Shown in pieces: positions 8,912-47,650 of a stretch of 64,000 bases of DNA. Where the stretch lies: positions 864,001-928,000 of the forward strand of contig CAWJPJ010000007.1 of NCBI GenBank assembly GCA_963844715.1. Reading direction: 5' to 3'. A program made the position numbers and the translations under genes. Origin of the DNA: an uncultured Phycisphaerales bacterium (GTDB lineage Bacteria; Planctomycetota; Phycisphaerae; Tepidisphaerales; Tepidisphaeraceae). Under the pieces are notes generated by a model. That model searched no databases. It had not been told where the DNA came from and saw nothing but the letters and a program-made list of their open reading frames with translations. Position 1 is the stretch's first letter, and each line of letters starts with the position of its first letter.

Positions 8912-8985
8912 GCACCCGTAGCTCAATTGGACAGAGCATCGGTCTTCGGAACCGAGGGTTGGGGGTTCGACTCCCTCCGGGTGCA
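8912..8985 (+). tRNA. tRNA-Arg(UCG), likely integration site of the ICE
   Basis: Cloverleaf: acceptor GCACCCG/CGGGTGC, D-arm GCTC/GAGC, anticodon arm TCGGT-CTTCGGA-ACCGA, T-arm GGGGG-TTCGACT-CCCTC; no encoded CCA. Confidence 0.95.
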
Positions 8986-9013
8986 TTTTCCTAAGCTGCT
9001 CCGAAATCAAACT

Positions 9014-10288
9014 TTACGGCAGCGGCTTGAACACCTTCCGTTTGGGAAACTCCCGCTTTCGGCCCAAGTTGGTCAGTTTTTGGTCAGTCGGGTCGTCCGC
9101 TGAGCCAACTGTGCCGACCAACACCTGCTGAATTTGCTGCGCCTTATCGATGTCCTCCGGACGCACCGACAAATAAAACTGCTGTGTCGTCTTAATGTCG
9201 CTGTGTCCGGCCAACTGCTGCACCACGTGGATCGGCAGTTCGTTTGCCCAATTCGTGATGCAACTGCGCCGCAGGTCGTGGATCGTGTAGGGACCAACAC
9301 CCGTCTGGCGGCAGATCGTCTGGAACCGCCGCAAGGCATTATTCATTAAATCCCGGTCGGTTTGCCATAAGCCATCTTGGACTTGCTGGCGGTAATACTC
9401 CCACCGACCATGATCCATGAACACATAGGGACATTGCTCGGGTGCGATCGTCTGCCACCTTGCCAGCAAGTCGATCGCCTGCCTGGGCAATGGAATGGAT
9501 CGCATTTCGTGGTCCTTCGGCGTCCATGCCTGCACGAACCCTTCGGCTACTTTTCGCGTTACGTGAACCTGGCCTGATGCAAAGTCGATGTCCGCCCAGG
9601 TTAGATTCAACGCTTCACGAAGACGCAAACCGGTCGTGTAAAGCACTACGAGTAATGCTCGCCACATCGCATCCGGCGCCCTGCCGACCAAAGCCAAAAA
9701 ATCTTTGGGCGGACAATACGGCGGACGCTTGCGCCCAACCTTCAGCAGGGGAACGCCGGAACACGGATTGGCTCCCTTTGCCAAGTAACCTCGGAAAATC
9801 GCGAGGTTGAACAGACGCCGAAGCGTCTTGACCTCACGATTGGCGGAAGCCGGCACGATACCGGCGCCAATTCGTTGCGAGCGGAACTGCTCCATCTCCC
9901 TTGCGGTGACGCGATGGATCGACCGGTCCCATCCGGTAGAATCGGCCAGCAATTTCAACGTCGCCAACTGCATATGCAGTGTCTTTCGAGCGACGCTGCC
10001 TTTCATAAGCTGCTTGTGCTCGTCGTAAAACGCTTTCAGTGAGACCGGCGTCGGGGCATCGCCCTTTCCCTGCCGGACCTCTTGTTGGGTGTTTTCGGCG
10101 AAACGCTCAGCCTCCTTTCGGCCATTAAAGCTCTTGGAATACCGATTGCCGTCGTTGCCGAACCACCGCACCACCCAGCTGAACGGCCGCTTTTTTGGCC
10201 ATTCGGATTTTGGTAGCGGGTGGCCCGACGCATCGGTCGGAACCGGCCCATAATAACTGCGATAGATACCAACTTTCGTCGTCGCCAT
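9014..10288 (-). CDS. Tyrosine integrase (start likely MATTKVG at 10288)
   Basis: TGLRLRE, HDLRR, LAGHSDIKTT..FY catalytic residues; converges on the tRNA 3' end; RBS-like GGAGAGG upstream. Confidence 0.92.
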   Translation of the reverse strand: MATTKVGIYRSYYGPVPTDASGHPLPKSEWPKKRPFSWVVRWFGNDGNRYSKSFNGRKEAERFAENTQQEVRQGKGDAPTPVSLKAFYDEHKQLMKGSVARKTLHMQLATLKLLADSTGWDRSIHRVTAREMEQFRSQRIGAGIVPASANREVKTLRRLFNLAIFRGYLAKGANPCSGVPLLKVGRKRPPYCPPKDFLALVGRAPDAMWRALLVVLYTTGLRLREALNLTWADIDFASGQVHVTRKVAEGFVQAWTPKDHEMRSIPLPRQAIDLLARWQTIAPEQCPYVFMDHGRWEYYRQQVQDGLWQTDRDLMNNALRRFQTICRQTGVGPYTIHDLRRSCITNWANELPIHVVQQLAGHSDIKTTQQFYLSVRPEDIDKAQQIQQVLVGTVGSADDPTDQKLTNLGRKREFPKRKVFKPLP

Positions 10289-10416
10289 GATGGGAACCTC
10301 TCCGGCCCGCATGCCCGGGGCCGATTGGGCCACCACGTGACGACTGACCAATGAAAGGAGTATAGCGCCAGGCGGCCGGGGCGTGAAGGCAATCGCAAGC
10401 GAAATTCGCAACGTTT

Positions 10417-14430: not shown

Positions 14431-14458
14431 GTGCGATTCCTTTGTTGAAAAAAACTTC

Positions 14459-15480: not shown

Positions 15481-15513
15481 AAATGCTCCTTCGCTCCACG
15501 GAGACCTGGGAAC

Positions 15514-16308: not shown

Positions 16309-16311
16309 GGT

Positions 16312-19050: not shown

Positions 19051-19058
19051 GAGGGTTT

Positions 19059-19672: not shown

Positions 19673-19700
19673 TGCACTTCATCGGCTGACAACGATGTCG

Positions 19701-21179: not shown

Positions 21180-21265
21180 TTATGTGTTGAGTATATTTAT
21201 GTTGTCAGATCACACCAACCAGTGGCTTCCCTGGACGCGATAGGCTGTTGTGACCACATAATTTT

Positions 21266-23208: not shown

Positions 23209-23218
23209 TCCTGCTCCT

Positions 23219-24619: not shown

Positions 24620-24830
24620 TTAGTTATGTTGCGAGTATCGGCGTGGGAGTGGAACAGCATTAGCTGATCGAATGATGGCGCACACGGGATGAATCCAACG
24701 AAAATAATGCTCTTGCCGTAACAGATCAGAAGCGAGAAGGCCCACAGACCACAGGAACATCTCTTACGGCCGAGCACATAACTAAACTCAACACATAAGT
24801 ACGATTATGTGGTGGACAACATAACAAGCC

Positions 24831-27375: not shown

Positions 27376-27460
27376 CATGAGATCCATCTGGCTGGCGACG
27401 GGAACGCGAGCGCAGCGGACGAAGGGCATGCCACGCGCAGAGGTTGAGAGTTGCATATGT

Positions 27461-27525
27461 GCGTTTATGTTGAGTTCCGAATTATTTTTGAGTTCGGCGG
27501 AAAATCCCTGCATTTCGGGGGTTCT
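27461..27525. repeat. Left 65-bp inverted repeat of RIT2
   Basis: Exact reverse complement of 30849-30913. Confidence 0.95.
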
Positions 27526-27602
27526 GAGCAGAATGGCGAAGCGGTTTGCTTCACATAATCCTGATGTCTTTCTTATGCCCATGTGGCGGAAAGGAAGGCG
27601 TC

Positions 27603-28863
27603 ATGTCTCACGATCTGTTTCTTCGATGTGTTCGCAGGCGGATCAGCGGCAATCCACAGGAACCGCTGTTGGAGCGATTCCTGATTTATCTCACCCAGCG
27701 TGGTTACGCTCCGGGAACGTGGTATCGGCTTCTGCGCATTGCCGATCACTTCGGGCGATGGCTTGGCCCTGGACCTTTGACGTACAAGGCGGCGCAGGGC
27801 TTCCTCAAACGCCATTTGCCGAGGTGCCGATGCACAACGCATTCGCTGCGCAGCCTGCAATGCAATCGCGAAGCGCTGCGGCTTTTGCTTGAGATGGCCG
27901 CAATCACGCCGACTCCGTCGCCAGCCCCCATGCATTTTGCGGATCGGCTGCTGGAACAATATGGACAGCACCTGATACAGGCGAGAGGACTCGCGCCGGT
28001 GACTGTCCATCATCGGTTGGATCTGGCCAGGCGAATGCTTCGACAGTTCCGAGTGCGTCAATCATCACAGTTCCGCGCCTGGACGGCCGCTCAGATCCAG
28101 CAATACATCGCGCGAATGGTGCGTCCTTACCAGACGTCCACCGGCCGCGCCATGACTTCAGCGACTCGCTCGTTCCTATGCTATTTACTGCAAAATCGCT
28201 TGATTCGGCGGGATTTGGCCGCGGCGGTTCCCGCATTGGCCCATTGGCGATTAGCGCCCTTGCCCAACACTCTGACAATCAAGGAGATTGAACGGCTCCT
28301 CAGGGCTGTCCGGCAATGCACCCCGCTCAATCTTCGCGACCGCGCCATTCTCCTGTGCATGGTCGAACTGGGTCTCCGGCGCCCCGACGTGACGGGACTG
28401 GAAGTCATCGGGGTGGATCTGGCCCATCGAGTGTTGCGCCTTCAACATCACAAGGAACGGGAGGCGGCGGCAACGCCCATGACCAGCCGACTGGCAGAGG
28501 CGATTGAAGCGTATCTCCGCAAAGGCCGTCCTGCCTGCCAGTCACCGTTCCTGTTCGTCTCGCATCGCGCCCCGGTTGGCAAGCCCTTGTCCACTGCCGG
28601 CCTTGGACACATCGTGCTCAGGATTGCTGGTCGCGCGAGATTGCAGGGCCGCGTCAGGGGCACCCATATATTTAGGCATAGTCTCGCCAGCCGACTGCTC
28701 GCTTCGGGAGGCGCCTTAAACAAATCGCCGACGTGCTGGGTCATCAGTCGATTGAGACAACGATGATTTATACCAAAGTCGATCTGCCGCGCTGATGCAG
28801 GTGGCGTTGCCTTGGCCCGGGGGCGCCAAAGACAAAACCTCCGCCGGGGAGGTGCGGCCATGA
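27603..28863 (+). CDS. RIT tyrosine recombinase A (indels near the C-terminus; end approximate)
   Basis: RGLAPVT, LAAAVP, RDRAILL...LGLR, GTHIFRHSLA; shifted frame continues IADVLGHQS..TT.IY.KVD. Confidence 0.88.
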
Positions 28864-29816
28864 CACACCAACTGACGATGGTTCGCCACGCCAGAGCCTA
28901 CCTTGAATACCGCCGCTCCCTGGGCTTTGCACTGCGCGGTCATGGCAGATTGGCGATGCAATTCGCTCGTTTCCTCGATCGCCGCCGTCACGAGCTTCCA
29001 ACGATCGGCCTGATGCTGCGCTGGGTCAATGGAAAGGGAACGCATTCCCAAAGCTATCGCGCCAGTCGTTTAACGGCGGTTCGCAGTTTTGCACGCTATC
29101 TGGCGGCAAGGGATGAACGAATCCCCATCCCGCCCGCCCGACTCTTATCCGTGAGGATTCGGCGCTGTCGGCCTCACATTTACAGCCCGCTGCAACTTGA
29201 GCAGCTGCTGTCCGCTGCCGGGCGGCTGCATCCTCACTTTGCGCTTCGCCCTTTGACCTATCAGACGCTTCTGGGACTGATCGCCGCCACAGGCTTGCGC
29301 ATCTCTGAAGCCATCAGGCTCCAGCGCGGACAGATCGATTTGAAGCGTGGTCTGCTGGAGATTACGCAGACCAAATTCAAAAAGTCACGCCTTGTGCCGA
29401 TGCACCCGACCACAACGCGGGCCTTGCGCCATTACCGCGATAAGCGCGATCAGCAATGGGGAACACGACAGGAAGCACCATTCTTTCTCAACGCCGCAGG
29501 CCGATATTTGCCATCGGAAACGGTACAGGCTGTATTCCGTCGGCTTTGCGAAGGTCTCGGCTGGCATCGGGGCAACGGCGAATTACCCAAACCACGCCTC
29601 CATGACCTGCGCCACAGCTTCGCCTGCCGCCGCCTATTGATCTGGCATCGCAATGGCGACGACATCGGGAACCGCATCGCCGCGCTGGCGACGTACCTGG
29701 GCCATGGCAGGGTCCGGGACACCTATTGGTATCTCACCGGCACCTCGGAACTGCTTGCCATTGCGGGAGACCGCTTCGGACGATTCGCCGATTCGGCAGA
29801 AGGGAGCAACCCATGA
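28860..29816 (+). CDS. RIT tyrosine recombinase B
   Basis: Y...RRSLGF, PHIYS, TGLRISEA, TKFKKSRLVP, PRLHDLRHSFA, TYLGH....TYWYL. Confidence 0.92.
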   Translation: MTHQLTMVRHARAYLEYRRSLGFALRGHGRLAMQFARFLDRRRHELPTIGLMLRWVNGKGTHSQSYRASRLTAVRSFARYLAARDERIPIPPARLLSVRIRRCRPHIYSPLQLEQLLSAAGRLHPHFALRPLTYQTLLGLIAATGLRISEAIRLQRGQIDLKRGLLEITQTKFKKSRLVPMHPTTTRALRHYRDKRDQQWGTRQEAPFFLNAAGRYLPSETVQAVFRRLCEGLGWHRGNGELPKPRLHDLRHSFACRRLLIWHRNGDDIGNRIAALATYLGHGRVRDTYWYLTGTSELLAIAGDRFGRFADSAEGSNP

Positions 29817-30826
29817 AAGCCAAGGAACTTATCCCCACGCTTCCACTGGCGCCGTTACTCCAGAACTATTTTTGTTCTCATTTGATCGGCCAGCGCGACC
29901 TGAGCCGGCGGACGATCCATGCCTATCGCGACACATTCCGGCTGCTGCTGAAGTTCCTGGCTCACCGCTTCAAGTTGATGCCCGAAGCATTGCGCGTGAG
30001 TGATCTGGACCCGCCAAGAGTCCTTGCCTTCCTTGATGACCTGGAACAATCCCGTGGCAACGGCGTTCGCACCCGCAACGCCCGGTTGGTGGCGATCCAT
30101 TCCTTCATGCGCTACATCGCATCCGTCGAGCCGTCGTTGTTGAATGTGGCCCAGCGCATTCTTGCGATTCCCGCCAAGCGATTCGATCGCCCATCCATCG
30201 GCCATCTTACGCGCCAGCAGATGCAAGCCATTCTGGACGCGCCTAATGCCGCGACGCGCGGCGGACAGCGCGACCGTCTTCTGTTGATGATGCTGTACAA
30301 CACCGGCGCGCGAGTGTCGGAGGTGGCGGCTCTTCACGTACACGATGTGCGCCTGGATTCCCAAGCCACGGTGCAGTTGCACGGGAAAGGACGGAAGAAT
30401 CGCGCCGTACCGCTGTGGCGTTCGACAACGCGATTGCTGCGGCAGTGGCTCAAGGACACTGGCGCCGCGCCTGAATCCCCGCTGTTTCCCAATGCACGAG
30501 GCGAGCCGATGAGCCGGCATGGCATCGCCCAGCGCTTGGCAACGGCCGTGGCTCGCGCCTCGAAGAAGTTGCCGGGTTTGGGGAACATCCGCGTGACTCC
30601 ACACAAAATCCGGCACTCCACGGCCATGCACCTGCTGCAATCGGGCGTGGATCTTTCAGTCATTGCGATGTGGCTGGGCCACGAACACATCGAAACAACA
30701 CATCAATACCTGGACGCCGATCTGGAATCGAAGAAACAGGCGTTGGCATGCTTGGATTCACCCCGTCTGCACCGGTATCGCCGCTCTGCGCCCAAACCGC
30801 TCCTTCAGTTCCTGGAAGGCCTGTGA
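29813..30826 (+). CDS. RIT tyrosine recombinase C
   Basis: T..AYRD, RTRNARL.AI, YNTGARVSE, TPH.IRHSTAMHLLQSGVD, WLGHE..ETT..Y. Confidence 0.92.
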   Translation: MKAKELIPTLPLAPLLQNYFCSHLIGQRDLSRRTIHAYRDTFRLLLKFLAHRFKLMPEALRVSDLDPPRVLAFLDDLEQSRGNGVRTRNARLVAIHSFMRYIASVEPSLLNVAQRILAIPAKRFDRPSIGHLTRQQMQAILDAPNAATRGGQRDRLLLMMLYNTGARVSEVAALHVHDVRLDSQATVQLHGKGRKNRAVPLWRSTTRLLRQWLKDTGAAPESPLFPNARGEPMSRHGIAQRLATAVARASKKLPGLGNIRVTPHKIRHSTAMHLLQSGVDLSVIAMWLGHEHIETTHQYLDADLESKKQALACLDSPRLHRYRRSAPKPLLQFLEGL

Positions 30827-30848
30827 TTATGTTGAGCCATCATGCACG

Positions 30849-30913
30849 AGAACCCCCGAAATGCAGGGATTTTCCGCCGAACTCAAAAATAATTCGGAAC
30901 TCAACATAAACGC
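30849..30913. repeat. Right 65-bp inverted repeat of RIT2
   Basis: Exact reverse complement of 27461-27525. Confidence 0.95.
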
Positions 30914-31560
30914 GCAGGCCCGCAGCGCTGTACTCAGCGTGAGGAACCGAGCATGGCAAGGCCGTACTCGGCCGGTGGCGTTTCGATAGCGGAGTCGAGC
31001 TAGACGTGCTGCGTAGGCCCGCTGCATCTGGTCCCGGCGCGCGCGGGGGCCTTTCAACAACTTAGCGGGCCTACCCTCCACCCCATGTTCCCGGCGCCAT
31101 CCTTATTGTTTCCGACAGTCATCACACCGGATTGACGGCCAAGGAGAGGAGGTGCGGAGGAGAGGACCGGCCTGAGGTCCTCTTCTCTGCATTCGCATTT
31201 CTTTATTTATAGAATGGCAAGCAGGGGCGTTTCTCTCGGTCGATAGTCTTGCGCTGTAATGGATATATGGCCGGTTTTAGCGTCGGGTCAGGAGAGCGTG
31301 ATGGTCACGACTTCCATCCCCTACGGTGTACCAAATGGCAGTGGACGCCGTATACCGCATTTTGCGGGTTGAGCTTGGATGCCGATTCTCGAAAAGTTTT
31401 TTTTAATCCAAGGGACGGCGGTCGCATTAATCTCCTAAAATCTCCAAGTAGTAACAGCGGCTGTATTGATATTGCCCTCCTCATCATGCTACGCCGGGTT
31501 GCTGTCAAGTGAACTGATTCATTGCGCATGCGGCCGCACTGTCCCGAAAGGAGACTCATC

Positions 31561-34870: not shown

Positions 34871-35160
34871 TCAGCCGCGGGCCTTGAGGCCGCCACCGAA
34901 CTTACAACTATGGGCGGGACAAATTCGAAACATCCGCGGCCGCCAGGATAGGATGCGGTTCACGGAGCGGACACCCAAATCAGAATCGCTCGCCGGTCAC
35001 TTAACTGTGTCGGAGAGTAGGTCGAAACGAATCGAGTTATGATTTGCACGGACGGCTAGAAACCTTTGAATGAGCGCCGGCGATACAAATGCCGATCTTG
35101 CCTTTGCGGTCCTCTCTACCTTCTACACCTCGCCTGCTCTATTGCCGTAATACCAGCAAC

Positions 35161-35197
35161 CGGGGTGAAAGGATTTGTACCTTCGGCCTCTGCCCCC
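35161..35197 (-). other. Degenerate tRNA 3'-end fragment (tRNA-Pro-like), possible relic att site
   Basis: Minus strand reads gaagg-tacaaat-ccttt-caccccg, resembling a T-arm plus acceptor 3' strand. Confidence 0.45.
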
Positions 35198-35817
35198 AAT
35201 AGGACGGCTAAAAGTGTCCAAGTTTAATCTAGATGAGATTTCTCGTTACCGATCGATTTTGTATTTCGACCGGGACTCATACTTTCACACACTTTCCACT
35301 TTGCGAGGAAATCTCAACGCTGCGCACGCTTAAATTCGATCGAGGTGATCGTCCCGCATTCGGGGCAGCGATCGGGGGTCGCGCGAAGGTCGTACCCGCA
35401 TCTAGGACATATTCGGCGCTTATGATAAAGACGCTGCAGGTGGAGATATCTTAAATAGCGGTAAATTTGATAGCAGGTTAGAAACGTCAAAATCGCCGAC
35501 GCGCCAAACTATCAAAAAAAATAAATAAAATAATCACGCCGCGATTCCGTTGCGGCTCATTAGTGCCAGACTACCAACTATAAAAAACTGAAGTGCAAAA
35601 TCCCAACCAAAAGCTGATGCCAAGACAAGAACAGCGATCATGGCAAATAATCTGGCGCGCGCGGTACCTTCATGTTAGCCACATCCACAGTTATACCTGT
35701 GAAAACGCTCTCGCGGGCAACCGGCCCTAGCTGATGGGATTGCCATAGCCGACAGAATACATTCATCTTAGGAATCCTCTTAGCAAAATCGATCTTCAGA
35801 TGTTCTAATCAATCCTG

Positions 35818-37422
35818 ATGACTTCGCGTACATTCAACCTTCCGGCTCGCCTGCAATCCAGGGGACAGCGGATCATGAATGGGAGAAATGTTGGTCTACT
35901 CTTGAACTTTCTGCCTCCGATCGCAATCGCGCTCGTCTTCTTTGTAATGGTCTATTCTCAGGCTCGGTATGCCCAATCATTGGCGATAAATCCGGATGAA
36001 GGGGTTAATTTGATAAAAAGTGCGATGGTCGCGAAGGGATACCATCTCTATAGCCAGATATGGAATGATCAGCCTCCCGTATTTACCCTGATGCTGAGCG
36101 AAGTATTTCGTGCGGTCGGATTCTCAATTGAAGCCGCTCGCATTTTTGTTTTGGTACTCTCAAGCATCCTGGTCGCCTGTCTTTACCAAACCATCCGGTG
36201 GCTTCATGATCACGGAACGGCGATCGTCACCGTTCTGTTTTTAGCGAGTTCTGCTTGGTTCATTCCGCTCAGCGTCGCCGTAATGATCGGCATGCCTGCA
36301 ATTGCGATGGCAGCAGGATCGCTTTTCTTGGCTAACGGTGCGATTCGATCGTCCAACCGCGCACTTTCCATGAGCCTGCTCTTTGCGTCTGGTCTTTTAT
36401 TTGGTCTGTCAATTCAAACGAAGATTTTTACGCTAATCGTCTTGCCGGCCGTGCTAATAAGTCTTCAGGGTCGGCCTGCCACCGTCTCGCGCAGGCAAGC
36501 TTATTGGGTTTGGTTTTTGAGCGTGTTGAATATTTTCATCCTTGTCATGGTGTTTACTGGAGAGAATTGGGACGAAATGCTGATTCCGCCGCTGCGACTT
36601 CGCGCAATGGTAGCTGTTAATCAAGTTTTTTCATTGCATGATATGTTTTCTCAAATCACCGAGCACTTCTTCTTTTTATTGCCGTTTTCACTCGTCGGTG
36701 TAATTGTGGGACTGCTGCGATCGCCAAGGGAGTCCTTTATCCCCATCTCGTGGTTGGCTACAGGCGTTCTCGTCTTCCATTTTCACCGTCCGTTGCGATA
36801 CCACTACTCACCGATGCTGGAGATTCCGCTGTGTTGGCTGGCGGCGATCGGACTATGCGCCACATTCATGCTAGGTCTTCGAGTATTTCTATGGGTCTGC
36901 TATCGTGCTTTGTCGAACGAAGAGACGAGGCCAAGCGCGTATGCATTTGCAGGGCATGCGACGGTTGCAACGTTGGTTGCGATGCTTGCAATAGGAGTGG
37001 CAACATACCTCACGATCGCTTTAACGTTTCGGGCTCACTATTGGCGTGAGCAGCTAAACCCAACCGTTTCATCTTTTTCTCATACTTCAAGTGCGCTTGT
37101 TGCCGAAATCCAGCAATTCAAAAGACATACTCATTGGATGTATACCGATCTTCCAGTCTATGCGTTCCGCGGCGGTGTGAATGTCCCACCTGAACTAGCT
37201 GTCATAACACAGAAACGCCGACAGACTGGCTTTCTTTCTGATGACCAAATTCTCGGGCTTATACACAAGTACACACCAGAACAAATTCTCATCGCCCGAT
37301 TTTCTTATGGGACAGATTTTCAGGCGATCCTGAGCCAGGATTACGTTCAGATTGGCGCCGAAGCCAGTAGATATAATCACGTTACCAGGCTGTATGTCAT
37401 CAAATCGTTGGCCGAGCGTTAG
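35818..37422 (+). CDS. GT-C fold membrane glycosyltransferase (ArnT/PMT-like)
   Basis: PDEG..L...GY.LY..IW.DQPP motif after the first TM helix; about 11-13 TM segments. Confidence 0.75.
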   Translation: MTSRTFNLPARLQSRGQRIMNGRNVGLLLNFLPPIAIALVFFVMVYSQARYAQSLAINPDEGVNLIKSAMVAKGYHLYSQIWNDQPPVFTLMLSEVFRAVGFSIEAARIFVLVLSSILVACLYQTIRWLHDHGTAIVTVLFLASSAWFIPLSVAVMIGMPAIAMAAGSLFLANGAIRSSNRALSMSLLFASGLLFGLSIQTKIFTLIVLPAVLISLQGRPATVSRRQAYWVWFLSVLNIFILVMVFTGENWDEMLIPPLRLRAMVAVNQVFSLHDMFSQITEHFFFLLPFSLVGVIVGLLRSPRESFIPISWLATGVLVFHFHRPLRYHYSPMLEIPLCWLAAIGLCATFMLGLRVFLWVCYRALSNEETRPSAYAFAGHATVATLVAMLAIGVATYLTIALTFRAHYWREQLNPTVSSFSHTSSALVAEIQQFKRHTHWMYTDLPVYAFRGGVNVPPELAVITQKRRQTGFLSDDQILGLIHKYTPEQILIARFSYGTDFQAILSQDYVQIGAEASRYNHVTRLYVIKSLAER

Positions 37423-37735
37423 GACATCGTTCGTAATCTTTCCAATCTTACTAACGCTGGCACAATGCGTTATGAAGAGATTTGTGCAATTTTGCCGACG
37501 GGCACGTAGCCATTGGAGATTTACGTTGACATATTGTGTCTAGGAGGTATGTTACATGGCGAATTCATCTTTAAGCGGGAACGGTGGGGCATACGTTTGG
37601 CACAACACCACCCCAGTAGTGACTACAATGGCGTCAAGAGTCTGCATCGCATAGGAGTCATTTTGGGCCTCGGAAAGATTTGGCTATTGATTGGCCGATG
37701 TAAAAGGTGCGAATATTCGGAAGGGAGGATGCAAA

Positions 37736-38203
37736 ATGATACGAGTTTTGCGTGTCATGTCCGTGTTGTTCGCAGTCGCGGTACTTACCGTTCTATGGGG
37801 ATCTACGAAAAATTTGGTTCCACCTATTGGGAGCGGCTATGTGCTTGGTTTGACGGATATGCGCCAAATTCACGGCATGACTGGCTGTCCGAGCGTGGCC
37901 CTGGGTCCAAATACACAATCTTGCCAAACGAATGGAATTGACTGTAACGGAACATACCCCAATTGTGGAACGTGCATCGGTCCTTGTGCAGAGAATGACT
38001 CCTTAACGAGCGGGATGGGCAATCCCGATGCCACAGGCTATTTTGCATCAAAACCCTGTCCAGGAAAATACTACGTGAATTCATGCGCTCCGTGGCAGAT
38101 CTTAGATCCGGACAATCCTTCTTGGGGATGTTCCTGCGACGATGGCACGCCGCTAACACCTCAGCCATGCGGCGGTAGCTACACCGGGTTGAATGGCTGC
38201 TGA
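37736..38203 (+). CDS. Secreted cysteine-rich protein A (12 Cys)
   Basis: GGAGGA RBS before ATG 37736; hydrophobic N-terminus; LTDMRQIHG-MTGCP; ends in GC. Confidence 0.8.
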   Translation: MIRVLRVMSVLFAVAVLTVLWGSTKNLVPPIGSGYVLGLTDMRQIHGMTGCPSVALGPNTQSCQTNGIDCNGTYPNCGTCIGPCAENDSLTSGMGNPDATGYFASKPCPGKYYVNSCAPWQILDPDNPSWGCSCDDGTPLTPQPCGGSYTGLNGC

Positions 38204-38245
38204 TACGGGACAACGATGAACGACGTGCTAATCTGGATTTAGGAG

Positions 38246-38752
38246 ATGATTATGAGACAGCGATTTGTCTATGTGATCGCACTTTTAGCCGCATCGGTAG
38301 TTTGGACATTTAGTTTCGGTGATGCTCGCGCTATGGGATCCAAGAATGGGCCTAGTGTAGCGATCATACTTGACAATTCGGCGATGAGTCAGATCCACGG
38401 TATGACCGGTTGTCCGGCGCTTTCGCTGAGTTCCTCAACAGCATGCGCTAACAACGGTAGCACCAACTGCAACGGAGGAATAACGACTAATGGTTGTCCT
38501 GGGACCTGCATGACTCCTTGCGGTGCAGATAACTCGGCGGGCAACAGCGGCAATGGCAACAACGCAAACGGTTATCTGTCTAGTGCTCCATGCACGACCA
38601 CGTACGCTGTAAACACCTGCATTCCCGGTACGATTACAGGTCCTGATGGTCAAGGTGGCTATGCGGACTACCCCACATGCAACTGCAACGGGTCGTCAAT
38701 CGGAAATGCATTACCTTGCGCTGGCACGTACACTTTCGAAAAAGGCTGTTAG
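38246..38752 (+). CDS. Secreted cysteine-rich protein B (12 Cys), paralog of A
   Basis: AGGAG RBS; signal peptide ending ARA; LDNSAMSQIHG-MTGCP; same Cys order; ends in GC. Confidence 0.82.
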   Translation: MIMRQRFVYVIALLAASVVWTFSFGDARAMGSKNGPSVAIILDNSAMSQIHGMTGCPALSLSSSTACANNGSTNCNGGITTNGCPGTCMTPCGADNSAGNSGNGNNANGYLSSAPCTTTYAVNTCIPGTITGPDGQGGYADYPTCNCNGSSIGNALPCAGTYTFEKGC

Positions 38753-38885
38753 TAATAGTCGTTTTTCAAACAGTCCGTTGCCCCCAAGAAACGATTCTAG
38801 TAGCGTCTGCCGGATTCGCTTGATAGTTCCAGACATGTTGGGGCGGTGAGAGGGCGTATCTCTAGCTCATCGTGAGGTCACATCC

Positions 38886-40121
38886 ATGCGCTTCTTGCGA
38901 CCTTACCTCGTTGCGGTGTTCGTGAGTCTTTTCTACGCTGGCCAATTTGGGACATTGGAACCAAGCGGCGGGCGCGCGATAGCCGCGACAACGGCACCGT
39001 CCGCCGGCGAACAATCCGATCATACTTCTTCGTTGTCACCTCAGTTTACTCGGCAGGACATCCTTGCCTACGTTGAAGCAGGTCGATCGAAGATATCTGA
39101 TTTAACTGTGTCGTTCTCTTTCAACGCGACGCATTCTGGACCTGACGATGCGGCGATTCGCGATCACACAAAAATTATCCTCAAGGGCTCAATGATCTAT
39201 AGCGATGAGGTCTACGGAGGCGATGCTTCCAAATCACCGCGCCTTTACGACCGCGAATTGGCTTTCAACGGCCACATTGGCACGATCCACCAAAAAAGCG
39301 AAGGCATTGCATCCTTTGGGCCGGAGAAGCCAATCGATTGTCGTGTGAGGGGGACAGGATTTTTCGATCTAGGTTGGCTCAATCCCCCTATCGAGGGCGG
39401 CACCGGCTGGAATGATCAGAGTCTGATCTCCCTGGTAAAGTCGTCTACGTCCAAGATGCGTCCCCAGCTGGAAATCGTGGCCGGTCACCCGTGTTACGTA
39501 TTCGACGCCTTTGGACCCGAATCAGACGCAACTGATCCAATGATTACCGCATGGCTTGATCCACAACAAGGATTTTTACCGATCAAAGTCGTCTATTTCT
39601 TGCGATCAACTCCCTTGATGGAGTCAGACATTTATACATCCAAGGAGGTTCTTCCAGGTTTGTGGATGCCCCTGCGTGGCCGCAAATACGTGTATTTTCG
39701 CAAAGATAGTCCTTATATCCGCGAAAATCAGGAACATATCATGATCGTGGATAGCGCGGACTCGGAAACGCCAGCGATCGCAGTGAATACGGGAGTCAAA
39801 GACGATTTTTTTGATCTGTGGAAGCATTTGCCTCCGGGTACGCTTTTAATCGACAAGCAAACTCGGAAAATGATAACTGTCGGTGGAAAGGATTGGCGTG
39901 CGACCGCGGATGAAGCCGTAGCCTCTGCCGCTGGTCAAGATTTGTCCGTGACAGACGCTGCTTCGGTTGGATCGCCGGTTACGCCGGCATCAGCAACCGT
40001 TGGACCAACCCCTGTATCATGGTGGAGCAATTCCGTGTTGCTCGAAGTTGGATCGGGTGTTGTTGTCCTAGTGTTGTTGATCCTAAGCGCAGTGATATTC
40101 CGGTTTCACAAAATGGCGTGA
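38886..40121 (+). CDS. Exported beta-rich protein (possibly LolA-like fold) with C-terminal membrane anchor
   Basis: Signal peptide; E.VAGHPCYV...WLDPQQGFLP.K...GLWMP..G motifs; C-terminal TM helix followed by basic residues. Confidence 0.6.
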   Translation: MRFLRPYLVAVFVSLFYAGQFGTLEPSGGRAIAATTAPSAGEQSDHTSSLSPQFTRQDILAYVEAGRSKISDLTVSFSFNATHSGPDDAAIRDHTKIILKGSMIYSDEVYGGDASKSPRLYDRELAFNGHIGTIHQKSEGIASFGPEKPIDCRVRGTGFFDLGWLNPPIEGGTGWNDQSLISLVKSSTSKMRPQLEIVAGHPCYVFDAFGPESDATDPMITAWLDPQQGFLPIKVVYFLRSTPLMESDIYTSKEVLPGLWMPLRGRKYVYFRKDSPYIRENQEHIMIVDSADSETPAIAVNTGVKDDFFDLWKHLPPGTLLIDKQTRKMITVGGKDWRATADEAVASAAGQDLSVTDAASVGSPVTPASATVGPTPVSWWSNSVLLEVGSGVVVLVLLILSAVIFRFHKMA

Positions 40122-40144
40122 TGGGTAATTGGGTTGCGGGATAA

Positions 40145-41974
40145 TTGAGAATGTGGGGAACTTCGCCCATGACCGAGAGAGAACGCCCTATATTTTTTTT
40201 GTTAGTTTCGGTCTCGGCATTTCTGCTGCAAAGCGCAGTTGGCGCCGCCAGCATCGCCACGGATAGCGCCACCCCGGCAGACGGACGTTGTTCATTATCG
40301 CTTGAGGATGCAAACCTCTCCGCGTCCCCGCCTGCCTGCGGCCCGGCAAGCATGGCAATCGCCCTTAAATTGCTCAACTGCAGCTTTACGAATGACGAAC
40401 TGACGAGGCTTGCCGACAGCCAAGGGGATTCAACATTCGCAGAGTTGGCCGAGTTCGCACAGCACAAAGGCCTTTACGCGGTCGCGGTGCGTTTGGGGCC
40501 AGGTCAGTTACTAAAGCTTCATCGAATCGCTATCTTGCAAATACTCTCGCCGCTGATCATAAATGGCGTTCACGCGCCCCATTTCATCGTGTTTGCCGGA
40601 CCCGTGCCAGGCACCGACCATGGCCCATGGTGGAACAAGGACTCGGTATTTTTGTTCGACTCAGTAGCCGGGGATGGCCTGCGCGGCCCATTGCCCATCG
40701 AAGCGCTATCAGAGATGTACACTGGGAACGCCCTAGTGCTATCAAAGTATCCTGTCGATCCGAATGAATTCGCTGTTGCTCATGCGGAGTCCCCGCACGA
40801 TTCGTCGCGCACGATCCGCGACGGCTCCATGGCAGGGTTGGGCGCCGCAGCAATTTTGCTATTTTGTGCCACCCTTCGCAGAAAAACGGGTTCGACAACG
40901 ATGCCGACTGTCGCGCCAACGATTGCGATGGTCATTTATATGACCCTATTTTCCGCCTCATTCAATTCTGCGGCCGCCGATTCGAGCAACCCAACTACGC
41001 GACCGGCAGGTGACTCGGCTGCTACTATTAACTCGAATGCCAACCAGCTCTGTGATGTCGGGAATGTTTCAAAAGGAGAACAAGTCCAACATTCGTTCGA
41101 ATTCACGAATTCTAAACCGATCGACATTGACTTACAGATCGCAGGAACTAGTTGTACATGTTTAAGCGCGCGGTTCGATGGACCGTCTCATCTTCGGCCG
41201 GGTCAAAAAACTAACGTTGTGCTGTCTGCCATCGCACGTAATGGCGGTCCCGTGCAAACCTCCGCTCTGATCAAGACTTCGGCGCAAGAAATGTTTCTCC
41301 TGACTATTCAGATGGCGGTGATAAACGACACGGATTATAGTCCGCGCACTGTTGATTTTGGAGATGTTTGGGCAGACCAAGGAAAGCAAAGCCGCCCTCT
41401 ACATTTTACGCATTACACGTCGAATGCGGGCGCATTCAAAGACTTTCTTGTCCGCTCTTTCTCACCATGCGTAAGCGTTTCGCTGGACAAACCAACATGG
41501 ACCAGTGGAAGCGACGGCGCGAAAACCGTCGATGAGAACGTAACGATTACTCTTGACCCGGCGTTGGCCTCGCTGGGTCCATTAGGTAAAGGTATTTTGG
41601 CAACGGCGAGCGACGGTAATAAGAAACTTTCATTCACGATTGATTGTATCGGCCAAGTTGTGCCTATCGTTGGGGCAATCCCTGATCAGATCGCGGTATT
41701 CGGCGCAAACCTCCCAAATGAAATCCCGGCATCGGTGACGCTAAAGGCAGTTGATGGACGCCTTGTGAACGTCGAAACGATTGAAGCATCGAATTTGACG
41801 ATCGCCAAATGGACGGCAACACCATCGGGGGACGGAACAATAAATCTGGAGATTATAATTCAACCAAACATGCTGCAGGGTCGGGCTCAAGGATCGCTGC
41901 ATGTCAAATTCATCGCGCTTAAGCACTATATGCTTGATATTCCCGTTCGCGTGGTGGATACGACGTCCCGATAA
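40145..41974 (+). CDS. C39-like cysteine peptidase domain + TM hairpin + DUF1573/Ig-like domains
   Basis: ACGPASMAIAL...G.STFAEL...A...GL.A..V...HFIV...LFDS...YTGNAL (C39 Cys/His/Asp); later F.FTN...TSCTC......L.PG (DUF1573-like); no ABC ATPase. Confidence 0.75.
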   Translation: MRMWGTSPMTERERPIFFLLVSVSAFLLQSAVGAASIATDSATPADGRCSLSLEDANLSASPPACGPASMAIALKLLNCSFTNDELTRLADSQGDSTFAELAEFAQHKGLYAVAVRLGPGQLLKLHRIAILQILSPLIINGVHAPHFIVFAGPVPGTDHGPWWNKDSVFLFDSVAGDGLRGPLPIEALSEMYTGNALVLSKYPVDPNEFAVAHAESPHDSSRTIRDGSMAGLGAAAILLFCATLRRKTGSTTMPTVAPTIAMVIYMTLFSASFNSAAADSSNPTTRPAGDSAATINSNANQLCDVGNVSKGEQVQHSFEFTNSKPIDIDLQIAGTSCTCLSARFDGPSHLRPGQKTNVVLSAIARNGGPVQTSALIKTSAQEMFLLTIQMAVINDTDYSPRTVDFGDVWADQGKQSRPLHFTHYTSNAGAFKDFLVRSFSPCVSVSLDKPTWTSGSDGAKTVDENVTITLDPALASLGPLGKGILATASDGNKKLSFTIDCIGQVVPIVGAIPDQIAVFGANLPNEIPASVTLKAVDGRLVNVETIEASNLTIAKWTATPSGDGTINLEIIIQPNMLQGRAQGSLHVKFIALKHYMLDIPVRVVDTTSR

Positions 41975-41997
41975 GCCGGCGCTGACGGGCGACAATC

Positions 41998-43149
41998 ATG
42001 CCAAAATCAAATTATCTGCATCGACTGAGCCTGTGGATGGTCGTCGTAATAGTTCTTTGTTGTGCAATCGCACTGGCAAGCCTGAAATCGTTCAACAATC
42101 GAGCCAGATCCACCGCAAATCCCGTCACCATGTCGCCCGATATCCGAGAAGCGGCGACACAGAACGTTGTGAGAGCGCACGAGGCACTCGCGAGATACGA
42201 CGCGGCACCCACAGATACAAGCCAAACGCCTTGGGCGTTATTCCACGGGCTACTAGGGCATCACGGTGATTTCCCGCTGCGAGATTCTATTTCCGGGGAG
42301 AGCGTAAATTGTGAGGACTGGCTGTTGCAGCAGGCAGCTGCGAAACCGATTTATTGGCAAACGCCGTTAGTCACGCAACGGGACTGGGGCGTTTGCTTTA
42401 CACACGGCAACCTCACCATCACAGAGCGTTTTGAGGATCACTTTTGCCAGTTCTTGTTTATTCTTATGAATCTCGGCCTCGATCCTGATAGGACGACGGT
42501 AAGAGTGCCACCGGACGGCCACGCATGCACGTTGAGGCAGATGGTCTACAACGAACAAACGTTTTGCAACGGGGCGCTGGACGTGAGTTGGGCGTTACCT
42601 CTCTTTGCCAGGTGGGGAAATCCGACTTGGACGAATAAATTCAACGAGCAATACGACCTTGGGTCTTTGATGACCCAACATCTTGATCTCGAAAAGCATT
42701 GTGACGCTTGTTTTGGAACCCACTGGCGGATGGGTCTGGCACTAACTTTATCATTCGCGGCCGAGCGGCTTCCAGAGGATGTGCGGGAACGGGCGAATAG
42801 TCGTCTTCAGCAGTTGATCGAAGAAGCTCATACCGGCCAAGATCCGGATTCAGGCCGTTTCCGTCTTGAGTCCGCGGCGGCAGCGATCGGTATCCACGAT
42901 CTCAGCCAACTTCCAAGTGATCGATCCGCCATTCTTTCGCATCAGGGCCATACATTGGCGTGGCTTATGGTTGCTTTGTCCGACGATCAATTGGCCACCG
43001 AAATGTGGCCACATAAGGGGGTAGAATTTCTAATAGATCAGTTGCAAGGTCCAACGGATTCCCTCAACTACGGCGCCTATTCGCACTGCGCGGATGCACT
43101 TCGTCTTTACCAAGCACGAATGCAATCGATCCTAAACTCGTCGAGATGA
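41998..43149 (+). CDS. Membrane-anchored/exported helical protein of unknown function
   Basis: N-terminal TM helix; motifs PWALFHGLL, H.CQFL, ACFGTH, GH.L.WL, HC.DALRLY. Confidence 0.7.
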   Translation: MPKSNYLHRLSLWMVVVIVLCCAIALASLKSFNNRARSTANPVTMSPDIREAATQNVVRAHEALARYDAAPTDTSQTPWALFHGLLGHHGDFPLRDSISGESVNCEDWLLQQAAAKPIYWQTPLVTQRDWGVCFTHGNLTITERFEDHFCQFLFILMNLGLDPDRTTVRVPPDGHACTLRQMVYNEQTFCNGALDVSWALPLFARWGNPTWTNKFNEQYDLGSLMTQHLDLEKHCDACFGTHWRMGLALTLSFAAERLPEDVRERANSRLQQLIEEAHTGQDPDSGRFRLESAAAAIGIHDLSQLPSDRSAILSHQGHTLAWLMVALSDDQLATEMWPHKGVEFLIDQLQGPTDSLNYGAYSHCADALRLYQARMQSILNSSR

Positions 43150-43159
43150 CTGGTCGCGT

Positions 43160-44152
43160 ATGGAATTGCAAATCAATTCACACCAAGCGATTGACGCAGC
43201 GCCACATTGCGCTCAACTCGCCTCTCGCGAACGATTGCATAGAATTACTGAAGTTTTAATTGCTATTGTCTTTTTCACCGCCGCAGCTTTTAAGGCATTT
43301 GCACTTTTTGAGCACTCCCAGCCGACTTTTTTATCGCCGTTATTTCAAACACGAATTTCACGCGGACTTCTCGCACAGATCGAATTGGCGATCGCTACGT
43401 GGCTTGCGATTGGCGGCTGGTCTCATGCCCGACTAATAAGCGCTTTGATCTTCCTGGCGGCACTATCAGCCGTGGCGACATATGACGCGGCCCATTCATA
43501 TCCGAGTTGCGGATGTTTCGGATCACTCAAGATTTCCCCCTTGATCACGCTAACGTTCGACGTATTGGCAATCCTAGCTCTTGTGGCCACCCGGCCGCGA
43601 TCACATCGACTTGCATTCACTCCGCCATCTCGTCGTCGGCGGGCAATTGCGGGTGGTTTTTTCCTGGTTTCATCTATGTTCATCTGGGTGGCATGTGCTT
43701 ATAGCCCACATACCCAATCGCAAGCCGGTTCTTTGCCATCAAATGCATCGGACGATGTAATCGTTCTGACGCCACAACTATGGATTAACCAGTCGTGGCC
43801 TTTATTTGCTGACGTTGATCAATCGACTGCGCTCCGCCGCGGCCGATGGCTCATTCTTATGTACCATTACGATTGTGACTCCTGTATTCGAGCGATTGCC
43901 AACTATCGAGCCATAGGCAGATTTAGCATTTCTAATCGGCCAAACATTGCATTCATCGCGATACCGCCCGACGCACCTGTAGACGAAGACCCTGTCCCCG
44001 CCTCGTCGAACTACCTTCGATTAAAACTCACATCTGAGCACGAATGGTTCGCGACAACCCCACTCGCACTGTACTTGGAGAATGGCTTAGTTCGACATGT
44101 CGCCGAAGGAGACGCCGCCGAGAGACCCGATCCCACCTGGTGGCAACCCTAG
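43160..44152 (+). CDS. MauE/DoxX-family membrane protein fused to a thioredoxin-like CxxC domain
   Basis: TM helices with SCGCFG (MauE signature); soluble C-terminal domain with YH.DCDSC and WF.TTP. Confidence 0.75.
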   Translation: MELQINSHQAIDAAPHCAQLASRERLHRITEVLIAIVFFTAAAFKAFALFEHSQPTFLSPLFQTRISRGLLAQIELAIATWLAIGGWSHARLISALIFLAALSAVATYDAAHSYPSCGCFGSLKISPLITLTFDVLAILALVATRPRSHRLAFTPPSRRRRAIAGGFFLVSSMFIWVACAYSPHTQSQAGSLPSNASDDVIVLTPQLWINQSWPLFADVDQSTALRRGRWLILMYHYDCDSCIRAIANYRAIGRFSISNRPNIAFIAIPPDAPVDEDPVPASSNYLRLKLTSEHEWFATTPLALYLENGLVRHVAEGDAAERPDPTWWQP

Positions 44153-44207
44153 CGCCGCGAATACTTGGCTAAAAGTCTCTCTCCTGACTGCAATCGAAAA
44201 ATCCGAT

Positions 44208-45236
44208 TCAATTTCGTTTCATACCTGCAGCAATCTGATCCTCCTGAAAAGTCGCCTGATCTATTTCGGATTTATATTGCAACTGCATCGGCAGATTTGG
44301 CCGGTAACGGCGAACAAAGGCATCATAATAACCTTCAGCTTCGTGGCCCCGGCCCAAATTACAAAGGCTGTCGATCAATGGAGGAAGTGCGTTGGCTGAG
44401 TATTTGTAATCTGGCTGATCTATTACACTCTTAAAGTGAACAATTGCTTCCGCATATCTACCTGAGCGGTAAAGGGCTAATCCAAAGCCCCAATCAAAAG
44501 CATTTCGTTCCCCTTGCTTCATTCCCGCAGGCGAAAGTTTTTCCAGAATTCCCACTGCATCTGATGTCTGTCCTTTCAACATGAAACACTCTGATAGCCC
44601 GATTTTTACATGAGTCATGGACCTCGTGACCGTTGCATCGCCTGGAACATAATGTCGAACCATGTCGGAATAAATACAGAACAAGGTGTTCAACGCTTCG
44701 GTGTGTTGGTCATCTCCGCTTTCGATCAAAGGCCAAAGCACATTTTTATAGTCCTGCATGTGCGCCTGCATGGCTTGAAGAATCGGAAGTGTCCTGGTGG
44801 AAGATCCGTTTGCTGCGAGCAATTCGCTTTCGGCGTGGCTTGCCGCCGTCCGGTAGATGACTTCGCTTGCGCGAGGGTCTTTCGAGACGGTATGGAACGC
44901 CTCCGCAATCGCAAATAAATCAGTAGCCCGCAGAGACGTACTCGACAAGGTCGCTCTCAAATTGGCAAGCATGTCCGCGGAAGAGACAGTGCTCGCGGGC
45001 GATTTCTGAAGCCTGACGACCATCCATTCCCGAAGTCGAGGATCGCCGGAACTCATCGAAACCAACGTATCGCTGTTTGTCGCTTGCGAAGTTCGACCGC
45101 CTGTCGGCAATTCGTCCGATAGTTCTGTAGTCCGTGATTGAAGCAAGAACAGCAGTAGAGCCAAAAAAATAGCCAAGGAGGATAGGATTACGGCTGTTAA
45201 GAGCACACGCCGACGAGCAGCATCAATTCCCATCAA
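44208..45236 (-). CDS. Membrane-anchored TPR-like helical protein
   Basis: N-terminal TM helix; GLALYRSGRYAEAIVHFK TPR-like repeat. Confidence 0.65.
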   Translation of the reverse strand: MMGIDAARRRVLLTAVILSSLAIFLALLLFLLQSRTTELSDELPTGGRTSQATNSDTLVSMSSGDPRLREWMVVRLQKSPASTVSSADMLANLRATLSSTSLRATDLFAIAEAFHTVSKDPRASEVIYRTAASHAESELLAANGSSTRTLPILQAMQAHMQDYKNVLWPLIESGDDQHTEALNTLFCIYSDMVRHYVPGDATVTRSMTHVKIGLSECFMLKGQTSDAVGILEKLSPAGMKQGERNAFDWGFGLALYRSGRYAEAIVHFKSVIDQPDYKYSANALPPLIDSLCNLGRGHEAEGYYDAFVRRYRPNLPMQLQYKSEIDQATFQEDQIAAGMKRN

Positions 45237-45626
45237 ACACCCCGCAATGACTTATAAATGTCCCTACAGAATATCATTTTACGGCGAAATTTACAGAATA
45301 ATCGTCTTTCGAAGTTCCCAACCGACTTGACTGCAATCGGCGTCGTTCTATGCCCTATGGGGTGCAGTCGGGCTGGGGGCCGGCATCGTATGTGTTGCAA
45401 GCGAGTGACAGACATCCGTCTTTTCGCTAGCAACATGTTGGTTTCTGGCGGTATACTATGGGGATAGCTTTTGGAACATTGATTATCGGGAGGGAATGAT
45501 CGCGCATCTAGGGCAATCGTCGGCACGGGACCGCCGTTTGTTCGACAGACCGCGAAACTAGATCCGAACTTCCGCGGTCTCGAAATTCTGAAATAGACGC
45601 AAGTGTGCTGGGAGGAATCCAAAGCC

Positions 45627-47329
45627 ATGGCTTGGCTTTTGCGATGGAAATTTTGGCATTGGACACTCGCGTCAATGGCGCTCGGATGGGTTTTGTCCTA
45701 CTGGTATGGTGGGCGCGTTTTTATTCCTGACGATCCAACGGCGCGAGTCAGTGAAAGCTATTTCTGGCATCAGGTAGACATCTCATCGAACCTTCAGGCC
45801 GCCACAGTCGATCGGATTATCCTTTATCCAATTCACCGCAAGGTCCAACTAATCACATTTGAATTGGTGACACACGACCTCACGCAGAGGTCTGGCGTTG
45901 CATTTCATTTTTTTTACGCAACACATGGCGATATCGAGCCCCGATTGACCGCAGCGCAAATCACTTTTGCTCGCGCTTGGTGGACCTCGCCGGTTTTTGG
46001 CGACCTCTTTTGGGGTGGGGGCACAGTGCTGGTTTTCGGTCTCGCTTGGCCGTTACTCTTATTTGATCTTCGGCGCCGTGGTTTCGGGCCGCCGATAATC
46101 GAGTCGCCAGTAGAGCTGCCCAAATCTCCCCTCAAGCAACAACAGGCCGACCAAATCCCCGCGAAGGCAACTACTGCCACGTACTCAAAACTTACCGTAT
46201 TGGACGCGATGATGGAAAGGAGCCTCTTATTACCCGAGCGACAACACTCACCCTCTCCACAACCACCGGCGGGCAACGTGAGATCGCTTAATACCACTCC
46301 GCTCGATCCACAAATCAGCGAAAAACCCCAGGAAGGGAAGGAATATGAAGGCATCTACTACCCCGTCGAGCATCCTAAATCAAAAAAGCCCGAGGGTTTT
46401 ACTCTAGTCGAACTCCTAGTGGTAATTGGGATTATGGCGATTCTGCTTGGATTGCTACTTCCGGCAATTACAGGTGCAAGATTAGCGGCGATGCAGCTAA
46501 TTTGCACCTCCAACTTACGCGCCATCGGTCAAGGCTTTTCAGTTTATCTAGCGCAGAATGGAGGCACCTATCCGCCCGCCTACACTTACGTGGGCGAGAC
46601 AATTCAAAACGGTATTGAACAGCCCACAGAGCCGAATCAAGGACATCTTCACTGGAGTTGGTACTTGTTCAAAACGGGCGGCGTTCCGGCAGAGTCGTTT
46701 CAATGCCCATCGCTCGATCAAGGGGGCCTCCCACCTGAACAGACCACGCCCGACAACTTGGAGCCCGGGCAGGCGAATTTGGCACCGCCGGATCAACAAG
46801 CTTTCCGCCTAGCCTATACCGTTAATGAAGCAATTGTTCCGCGAAATAAATTCGTTCTTGGCTTTCAAGGCGCGGTTCGTTATTACCAATACGTCAAAGC
46901 GAATCAGGTCACACATCCGAGCCAGACGATTTTAGCAACTGAGTGGGGCCCTGCCGGTGCGCGCGTTCCCCGCGACCGGAACCTCGGGCTACTTTCGCGT
47001 CCAAAGTCATCGTCCTGTTGCAGGATATGTTACGGGCTCAGGAATACTTGATTTCTATAATCTCCCGCCCGGAGCCGCGGTTTCGGCCGGCTACAGCGTC
47101 AGACCTCGATCCCGACCCCGACAGCACTACGGGCTTCACACATGTGGAGCTTGATTGGGTGGGACGTAACCATGGTCTCCGCGCGGGTTACCCAGATGAT
47201 CGCCGTACGAATTTTCTCTACGTTGATGGACACGTCGAGTTGAAAAGTATCTATGAAACTCTCGCACCATTCCAATGGGGTGAACAGTTTTGGAGCCTTA
47301 ATCCGCGAAATGATCAAGAAACTCCGTAA
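45627..47329 (+). CDS. DUF1559-type prepilin/H-X9-DG protein with an N-terminal membrane extension (indels near 46960-47050)
   Basis: Internal GFTLVELLVVIGIMAILLGLLLPA...C.SNLR.IG, FQCPS; C-terminal NH...TNFLYVDGHVE. Confidence 0.8.
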
Positions 47330-47650
47330 CAGCCCGCAGACCATTCCCCGCAACGATTATCCACATCCAACGGCTGTTACGCCATGTCTACGATGCACAA
47401 GTATACTGTCGCCGCCCCAATCGATTCCAGCGACGGGTACCGCGGATGTTGAGGCGATCGTGCGGCCAGTGAATCGGTTTGCTTCGACCGTCAAGCCTTC
47501 TTAACGACCGACGACCCTCAAATGCCACCGCTGTCGCTCAACGTTATGGCGCAAATTCAAAGAACAATCCAAACCTATCGAGTTTTCGAATGTATTGGAT
47601 GAAATGCTTCACTTCGCTACCATGGTGTCCCTAAACAATGGAGGAATTGG

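Follow-up and report, generated by a model that had tools for sequence, protein, structure and literature searches.

In ATP-binding cassette (ABC) transporters that contain a peptidase and in ABC transporter maturation and secretion proteins (PCAT/AMS; ComA, LahT and PCAT1 among them), a C39 peptidase domain is fused to ABC membrane and ATPase domains, and the leader of the substrate lies at its N-terminus without a Sec signal. C39 domains read leader positions -12, -4 and -2 (PMC10885120, PMC6363468), and the known C39 cleft is narrow at -1 (PMC6363468). An ABC-less periplasmic C39 protease is itself not new, because FapD of the Pseudomonas Fap amyloid system is Sec-exported, lacks ABC domains and is catalytically required in the periplasm, its target being given as unknown (PMC5557850). 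Giant proteins of Omnitrophota also have a C39 domain near a signal peptide, with a proposed role in pro-protein processing (bioRxiv 10.1101/2023.11.21.568195). Here we describe a cassette of six genes (g1 to g6) in a 64,000-nucleotide stretch of DNA from an uncultured Phycisphaerales bacterium (contig CAWJPJ010000007.1, positions 864,001 to 928,000; hereafter the window), in which two precursors with 12 Cys each stand beside an ABC-less C39 protein and a MauE-CxxC protein, and which probably specifies an extracytoplasmic maturation pathway for small disulfide-rich proteins.

The cassette shares with PCAT/AMS proteins the C39 triad and recognisable homology, as well as leaders that are hydrophobic at -12 and -4 and carry Gly at -2. 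It differs from them in having no ABC transporter, in that substrate and protease both bear export signals, and in that the -1 residue is free, the oxyanion Gln is absent and the core is a predicted folded protein of 105-115 amino acids (aa). Compared with FapD, the C39 protein of the cassette (g4) is likewise ABC-less and predicted to be extracytoplasmic, but it is membrane-anchored and fused to Ig-like domains, and its partner has a leader and 12 Cys; Pfam recognised neither amyloid subunits nor a FapF-like barrel among the cassette genes. The Omnitrophota C39 domains belong to giant polyproteins for which the accessible text gives no leader-bearing Cys-rich partner. The MauE-CxxC protein (g6) shares the CGCFG site, a conserved Lys and Glu and the CxxC fusion with the MauE pathway, but sits in a dedicated operon with likely substrates; C39 domains and planctomycetes are not mentioned in the accessible main text of the MauE preprint (bioRxiv 10.64898/2026.03.05.709764). 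We found no description of the cassette in the literature searched, most subscription journals and all supplements lying outside that search. New here are the 12-Cys family with its relaxed -1 position, the His-barrel accessory and the island setting.

A conserved core of precursor, g3 and C39 genes

The cassette comprises the following features (window positions, strand in brackets).

37736..38203 (+): g1, precursor 1; 155 aa, 12 Cys, N-terminal hydrophobic segment
37844-37879 (+): g1 leader, L37-M48, between the export signal and a 107-aa 12-Cys core
38246..38752 (+): g2, precursor 2; 168 aa, 12 Cys, N-terminal hydrophobic segment
38369-38404 (+): g2 leader, L42-M53, between the export signal and a 115-aa 12-Cys core
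38886..40121 (+): g3, exported protein with C-terminal anchor; no Pfam match, weak LolA-like lead; core member, putative holder or chaperone
40172..41974 (+): g4, signal-like segment, C39 domain, membrane hairpin and DUF1573/Ig-like domains; the start may lie up to 27 nt upstream (40145)
Cys 40337, His 40580, Asp 40658 (+): codons of the g4 triad
41998..43149 (+): g5, N-terminally anchored (alpha/alpha)6 barrel with conserved H83, H148, C238, H242, H318 and H363; accessory
43160..44152 (+): g6, MauE fused to a CxxC domain; accessory, candidate disulfide-forming enzyme
43508-43522 (+), CGCFG; 43874-43885 (+), CxxC domain: g6 motifs, with conserved Lys45 and Glu75
44208..45236 (-): g7, anchored tetratricopeptide repeat (TPR) protein; homologs upstream of the precursor in three of five related loci

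The six open reading frames (ORFs) of g1 to g6 share one orientation and are separated by gaps of 42, 133, 50, 23 and 10 nt. The precursors are paralogs (34-37% identity by tblastn; 65% DNA identity over aligned columns), and apart from this pair every cassette gene is single-copy in the host genome. Pfam assigns Peptidase_C39 to g4 (E 1.9e-4, 21.7 bits for the protein and 24.5 bits in the genome search, the profile cut-off being 22 bits) together with DUF1573 (E 2e-8), and MauE (PF07291, E 9e-10) to g6; g1, g2, g3 and g5 have no real family match in Pfam or NCBIfam. An earlier note, made by a model from the DNA letters, had listed six co-oriented, closely spaced genes for two paralogous 12-Cys precursors, a C-terminally anchored protein, a C39-like peptidase with transmembrane hairpin and Ig-like domains, an anchored His/Cys-motif protein and a MauE-CxxC fusion, and all of these descriptions agree with the ORF calls, motifs and profile matches. 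The genes are real and intact: all six are free of indels relative to public soil-metagenome contigs, which come from three DNA runs of one study, one of them possibly the source itself.

Two contigs of a root metatranscriptome from another study match exactly at 38106-38303 (198 nt) and 38701-38916 (216 nt). They lie at the precursor end and are the sole two contigs placed on 35000-47500; on 1-20000, the matches listed for the same metatranscriptome are pieces of 31-36 nt with differences. As unstranded contigs of one run in which DNA contamination is possible, these pieces weakly hint at expression of the precursor end. Promoter and terminator scans around the cassette gave scores at or below shuffle level; a consensus-like site at 37526-37553 carries no weight as evidence.

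Searches with g5 and g3 found related loci. Five of them are of sufficient length for an assessment, namely L034 (which shares its contig with L074), L054 and L058 (one assembly), L055 (identical in sequence to L073; Tepidisphaeraceae) and L072 (Pirellulales); L056 and L057 were too short. All five carry a Cys-rich precursor, as the earlier note would expect, followed by g3 and g4, and this constant order argues that the arrangement is not due to chance. The g5 gene follows in four of them (not in L072), a g7-like TPR gene lies ahead of the precursor in three, and two have a MauE-CxxC gene. Judged by these sequences, precursor, g3 and the C39-Ig protein form the core, and g5, the MauE-CxxC gene and the TPR gene, which was missing from the first gene list, are accessories.

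The precursor, g3-like and C39 genes are retained in more distant cassettes, with differing additions: L075 and L086 have a divergent g5, and L076 has MauE-CxxC and encodes C39 and DUF1573 in two distinct genes for exported proteins. A broad C39 profile matched 134 of 401 genomes of the phylum, ABC exporters included. Among the matches listed, we took 40 short-frame C39 loci, of which seven have a separate, signal-bearing Cys-rich neighbour and six are fusions ending in a Cys-rich core; none of the 40 has g5.

One genome (G212) has 10 C39 matches, and its cassette-like loci, at least six in number (L034, L075, L083, L091, L098, L102), differ in their Cys-rich precursors. L079 encodes (13971-14825, minus strand) a secreted protein of 285 aa that contains 50 Cys and bears the same leader ending in GG; its operon also includes a small exported C39.

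Leader, C39 domain and candidate disulfide-forming enzyme

A profile built from six precursors found 33 cluster representatives, 26 of which were kept (five seed-like matches, a 1352-aa repeat protein and a 94-aa fragment were left out); with seven locus sequences they make up an alignment of 33 precursors. An N-terminal hydrophobic segment is present in 31 of these. Between signal and core lies a double-glycine-type leader with L/M/I at -12 (31/33), V/I/T/C at -4 (33/33), Gly at -2 (31/33) and Cys at +3 in 23, and the window precursors carry L, M, I and G at -12, -7, -4 and -2. The leader motif plus Cys matches three of 302 background ORFs. Among distant separate precursors, 10 of 15 have a leader ending in GG or GS, and because the first Gly of true GG homologs aligns with the window Gly, the conserved Gly is predicted to be -2, with the cut after IHG-Met and a mature protein starting TGCP. 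The cut had been proposed one residue earlier, after IHG (mature start MTGCP), which the double-glycine register does not favour.

The triad Cys, His and Asp of the C39 domain is invariant in 14 of 14 domains and aligns with the peptidase domains of ComA, LahT and PCAT1 (E 1e-16 to 1e-13; 9e-17 for ComA), and the triad of g4 is intact. Six of six close g4 homologs have a signal-like segment before C39 and two hydrophobic segments after it, joined by a basic loop (3-7 K/R, 0-1 D/E). By the positive-inside rule the C39 and Ig-like domains are predicted to face outward rather than into the cytoplasm. Since g4 consists of C39, hairpin and Ig-like domains and is the only PF03412 match in the host genome (85% complete), the description of the peptidase as ABC-less stands.

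For g6, the CGC and CxxC motifs and Glu75 are kept in four of four homologs. Two MauE proteins can replace DsbB through their CGC motif, and 8.2% of MauE entries are fusions to a thioredoxin (CxxC) domain (bioRxiv 10.64898/2026.03.05.709764), which makes the assignment of g6 ordinary and well founded. It is likely a disulfide-forming enzyme that may oxidise g1 and g2. Besides g6, the host genome has one further MauE-like match, which contains a stop, and VKOR gave none over the cut-off; no search was aimed at DsbB.

A predicted maturation pathway and its main rival

We propose that g1 and g2 would be exported by Sec, and that their six disulfides would be formed by MauE-CxxC, aided by or replacing host oxidases. 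The leader helix would then dock on the outward-facing C39 domain, which would cut after Gly-Met to free a core that begins with TGCP, and in doing so may release it from a signal anchor that had stayed uncleaved. The g3 protein, the Ig-like domains and the TPR protein would hold the core or hand it on at the cell envelope, and g5 would be an optional enzyme or binding protein. We give this pathway, whose steps we infer, a probability of about 0.65. It upholds the earlier outline of Sec exit, disulfide formation by MauE-CxxC and cleavage by an ABC-less extracytoplasmic C39, with corrections to the cut site, the core gene set and the product type and with FapD as a precedent. The anatomy of the cassette, its conservation and the fusions described below are observed; topology, cleavage, substrate oxidation and product role are predicted.

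Several points weigh against the pathway. Cleavage and binding are predicted from sequence, and the outward orientation from hydropathy and charge. In the leader, -7 is L/I/V/M/F in just 16 of 33 precursors and -1 is Gly, Ala or Ser in 15, both window precursors having Met; the family search profile contained the leader, so leader conservation is partly selected, and curated leader models give no match to the precursors. Six of six close homologs lack a Gln at the position six residues ahead of their catalytic Cys, MauE-CxxC is missing from three of five related loci, and 27 of the 40 short-frame C39 loci showed no Cys-rich partner, several of their contigs being short.

Some of these observations bear on the main rival, in which the leader is an uncut docking tag and the C39 domain either serves as a chaperone, in the way of HlyB's C39-like domain, or cleaves a different envelope protein, as has been suggested for FapD. 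In its favour are the large residues at -1 (Met, Arg, Trp, Tyr or Lys) in about half of the 33 precursors and the missing oxyanion Gln, and the target of FapD may itself not follow the GG rule (PMC5557850). Against it stand the invariant triad and the distant precursors and fusions, which mostly keep GG, GA or GS at the leader end; moreover, in the LahT complex that Gln lies 4.3 A away, a His is offered instead, and the need for the Gln is questioned (PMC6363468). We consider an uncut tag unlikely.

The 12-Cys core and its possible role

Nine of the 12 core Cys are invariant and the other three are present in 29-32 of the 33 sequences; two related sequences lack one CxxxC Cys together with one CxC Cys. 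For g2, the model is confident and beta-rich (predicted local distance difference test, pLDDT, 82; predicted template modelling score, pTM, 0.60) and has a short leader helix at residues 44-48. These data model the product as a folded mini-protein of 105-115 aa with a fixed 12-Cys framework rather than as a hypervariable peptide. Fold searches with the model gave nothing significant (Foldseek E above 5; best Z 2.9), and an atlas search with precursor 2 gave no usable match; the absence of a structural match is no proof of a new fold. Seven of 16 listed fold matches are cystine-knot growth factors, but with Z of 2.0-2.9, and compared with the CxGxC...CxC ring of the cystine knot the spacing of core C84-C88 varies from 2 to 5.

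With 12 Cys and a MauE-thioredoxin neighbour, the precursors might be amine dehydrogenase small subunits, MauA-like proteins with six disulfides matured by MauE and MauD. The methylamine dehydrogenase small subunit family has a conserved Trp pair. The 33-sequence alignment has no conserved Trp, no small-subunit match appeared in Pfam, NCBIfam or the fold matches listed, and of the genes annotated in the window none was recognised as coding for a large subunit or a MauG-like protein. MauE, moreover, is a general oxidase (bioRxiv 10.64898/2026.03.05.709764), and we regard this identity as very improbable.

The core could also be a diffusible antibacterial toxin, with g3 or g5 as immunity protein. 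Low-GC island cargo (see below), duplicated and diverged precursors and a patchy distribution would suit a toxin, and the C39 domain of StbD is described, in the accessible text, as a toxin itself. The cores, however, are acidic to neutral (charge -3 and -6 in the window, family median -2), and all members of the precursor family share a fixed framework; there was no sign of a small immunity ORF, and 24 of 24 genomes of one planctomycete family have g5 relatives without any cassette. A toxin therefore seems quite unlikely to us. As the most likely role of the product we favour that of a recognition protein, secreted or displayed on the envelope, over that of a cationic membrane toxin, and this is the weakest step of the proposed pathway.

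Single-chain fusions and the g3 protein

Among eight long C39 proteins of distant loci, seven have at their C-terminal end a leader followed by a core with 8-10 Cys (L080, 7839-9707, plus strand; L087, L092, L095, L096, L105 and L109). Their N-terminal part matches g3 (hhalign 89.7%, E 2e-6), g4 and g5 controls giving 0.1%. Being fused in one chain, a g3-like domain, C39, leader and Cys core appear tied to one process. In an atlas search g3 resembled planctomycete clusters (0.96), and a LolA-like match (PF17131 at 0.90, 117 shared features) is a weak lead; no sequence match was found in the PDB. The g3 protein may be a holder or chaperone.

Beyond g7 lies a further gene that may be linked to the cassette.

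45603..47329 (+): prepilin-type gene (N-methyl motif), with two probable single-base assembly errors

The cassette might use g3 to load a surface structure, or a partner resembling a pilin, with the core: a prepilin-type gene adjoins the cassette here and in L055, where its homolog lies two genes behind g5, and six of the seven g3-C39-core fusions also adjoin one. Such genes, however, are numerous in the genomes concerned, with many matches in G000, and occur next to solitary g5 genes as well. The loci L034, L072, L075 and L076 showed none alongside, and only two of seven short-C39 loci with separate precursors have one. Pilin loading is thus supported for the fusions and weak for the window subtype, and overall we think it doubtful.

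The prepilin-type gene has a 260-aa N-terminal extension ahead of the N-methyl motif and a paralog on contig C4. Public contigs are one base shorter at 46966 and at 47075, and its break is therefore probably an assembly error.

The g5 barrel

The g5 model (pLDDT 95) is an (alpha/alpha)6 barrel whose fold is tied between GH105/GH88, type II terpene cyclases and cellobiose and GlcNAc 2-epimerases (Z 15-17, root-mean-square deviation 3.5-4.0, 244-284 residues aligned, 5-14% identity). Foldseek gave no match at E 0.001, the PDB no sequence match and Pfam no match in 40 family members. AGE/cellobiose 2-epimerase reaches Z 15.1, but only the GH-x-x-E-W motif lines up, and in the window g5 Ala replaces its otherwise near-invariant Glu; hhalign to AGE (probability 2-5%) and GH88 was not significant, with small alignments of 7 and 5 sequences.

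Relatives of g5 occur in 32 of 401 genomes, mostly without any cassette. One planctomycete family has this His-rich barrel in 24 of 24 genomes, in 1-5 copies (for example L045-L053 and L140-L157). We rejected g5 as a cassette marker: none of 18 further g5 loci lies beside a cassette, the short-frame C39 loci lack the gene, and among 19 earlier regions only L037 has a cassette, around a second, divergent copy. In the tree, window-type g5 forms a clade of 7 rows (support 100/100), and two distant cassette-linked copies fall outside it on long branches.

If g5 added an extracytoplasmic chemical modification to Sec export, dedicated oxidative folding and removal of the pro-segment by an anchored C39 relaxed at -1, and if the six-disulfide mini-proteins had a new fold, the whole would be a eukaryote-like prepro pathway in Planctomycetota and a new class of ribosomally made modified proteins. 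We hold this extended version to be improbable.

The cassette as cargo of a conjugative island

The region at 35-46 kb has a GC content of 0.508, lower than in any of the genome's 897 segments of 10 kb, which average 0.594. The cassette is flanked by trbB on one side and by the other trb genes on the other; the conjugative element to which these belong also has an integrase, a coupling protein and a relaxase. A single g4 query gave nothing in 40 relatives beyond two weak Ig-domain matches. The island begins at a tRNA-Arg (8912-8985), and at distances of 89 and 93 kb the same contig has exact copies, 44-49 nt long, of the 3' end of this tRNA.

8912..10411 (no strand given): tRNA-Arg and integrase, left end of the island

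Low GC, position and absence from the relatives mark the cassette as acquired cargo of a conjugative island, itself recognised from its sequence, which agrees with the integrative and conjugative element suggested at the outset.

The island spans 8912-55179, and its trb operon is interrupted by about 27 kb between trbB and the trbE pieces. Three partial tRNA-end repeats downstream on contig C7 (962032, 965994 and 986271) suggest tandem islands. Two three-integrase elements (21179-24824 and 27458-30917) have copies of 99.7-99.9% identity elsewhere in the genome, which points to recent mobility of both. Directly upstream of the cassette, on the same strand and in the same low-GC stretch, lies a PMT_2 membrane glycosyltransferase gene (35818-37422), no homolog of which was seen in the related cassettes. 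A short ORF at 35314-35490 (minus strand) ends in a double CxxC zinc-ribbon-like motif; the stretch 35350-35400 is common to many unrelated public contigs, and the ORF is probably a fragment of a multi-copy family. Elsewhere in the window are two groEL genes close together (4-4601) and a TPR and Glyco_transf_41 (O-GlcNAc transferase-like) gene (58804-61095).

Significance

If the proposed pathway is true, the double-glycine leader and the C39 protease would be detached from ABC export and placed after Sec in the periplasm, and the scarcely characterised class of periplasmic C39 proteases, in which the target of FapD is unknown, would gain a named candidate substrate. A C39 domain accepting Met, Arg or Trp at -1 would serve as a useful tool for leader removal, and in the 12-Cys core there is a small scaffold whose model is confident and which has no structural match. 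The cassette also offers MauE a candidate dedicated substrate, in a phylum whose secreted proteins are largely unassigned.

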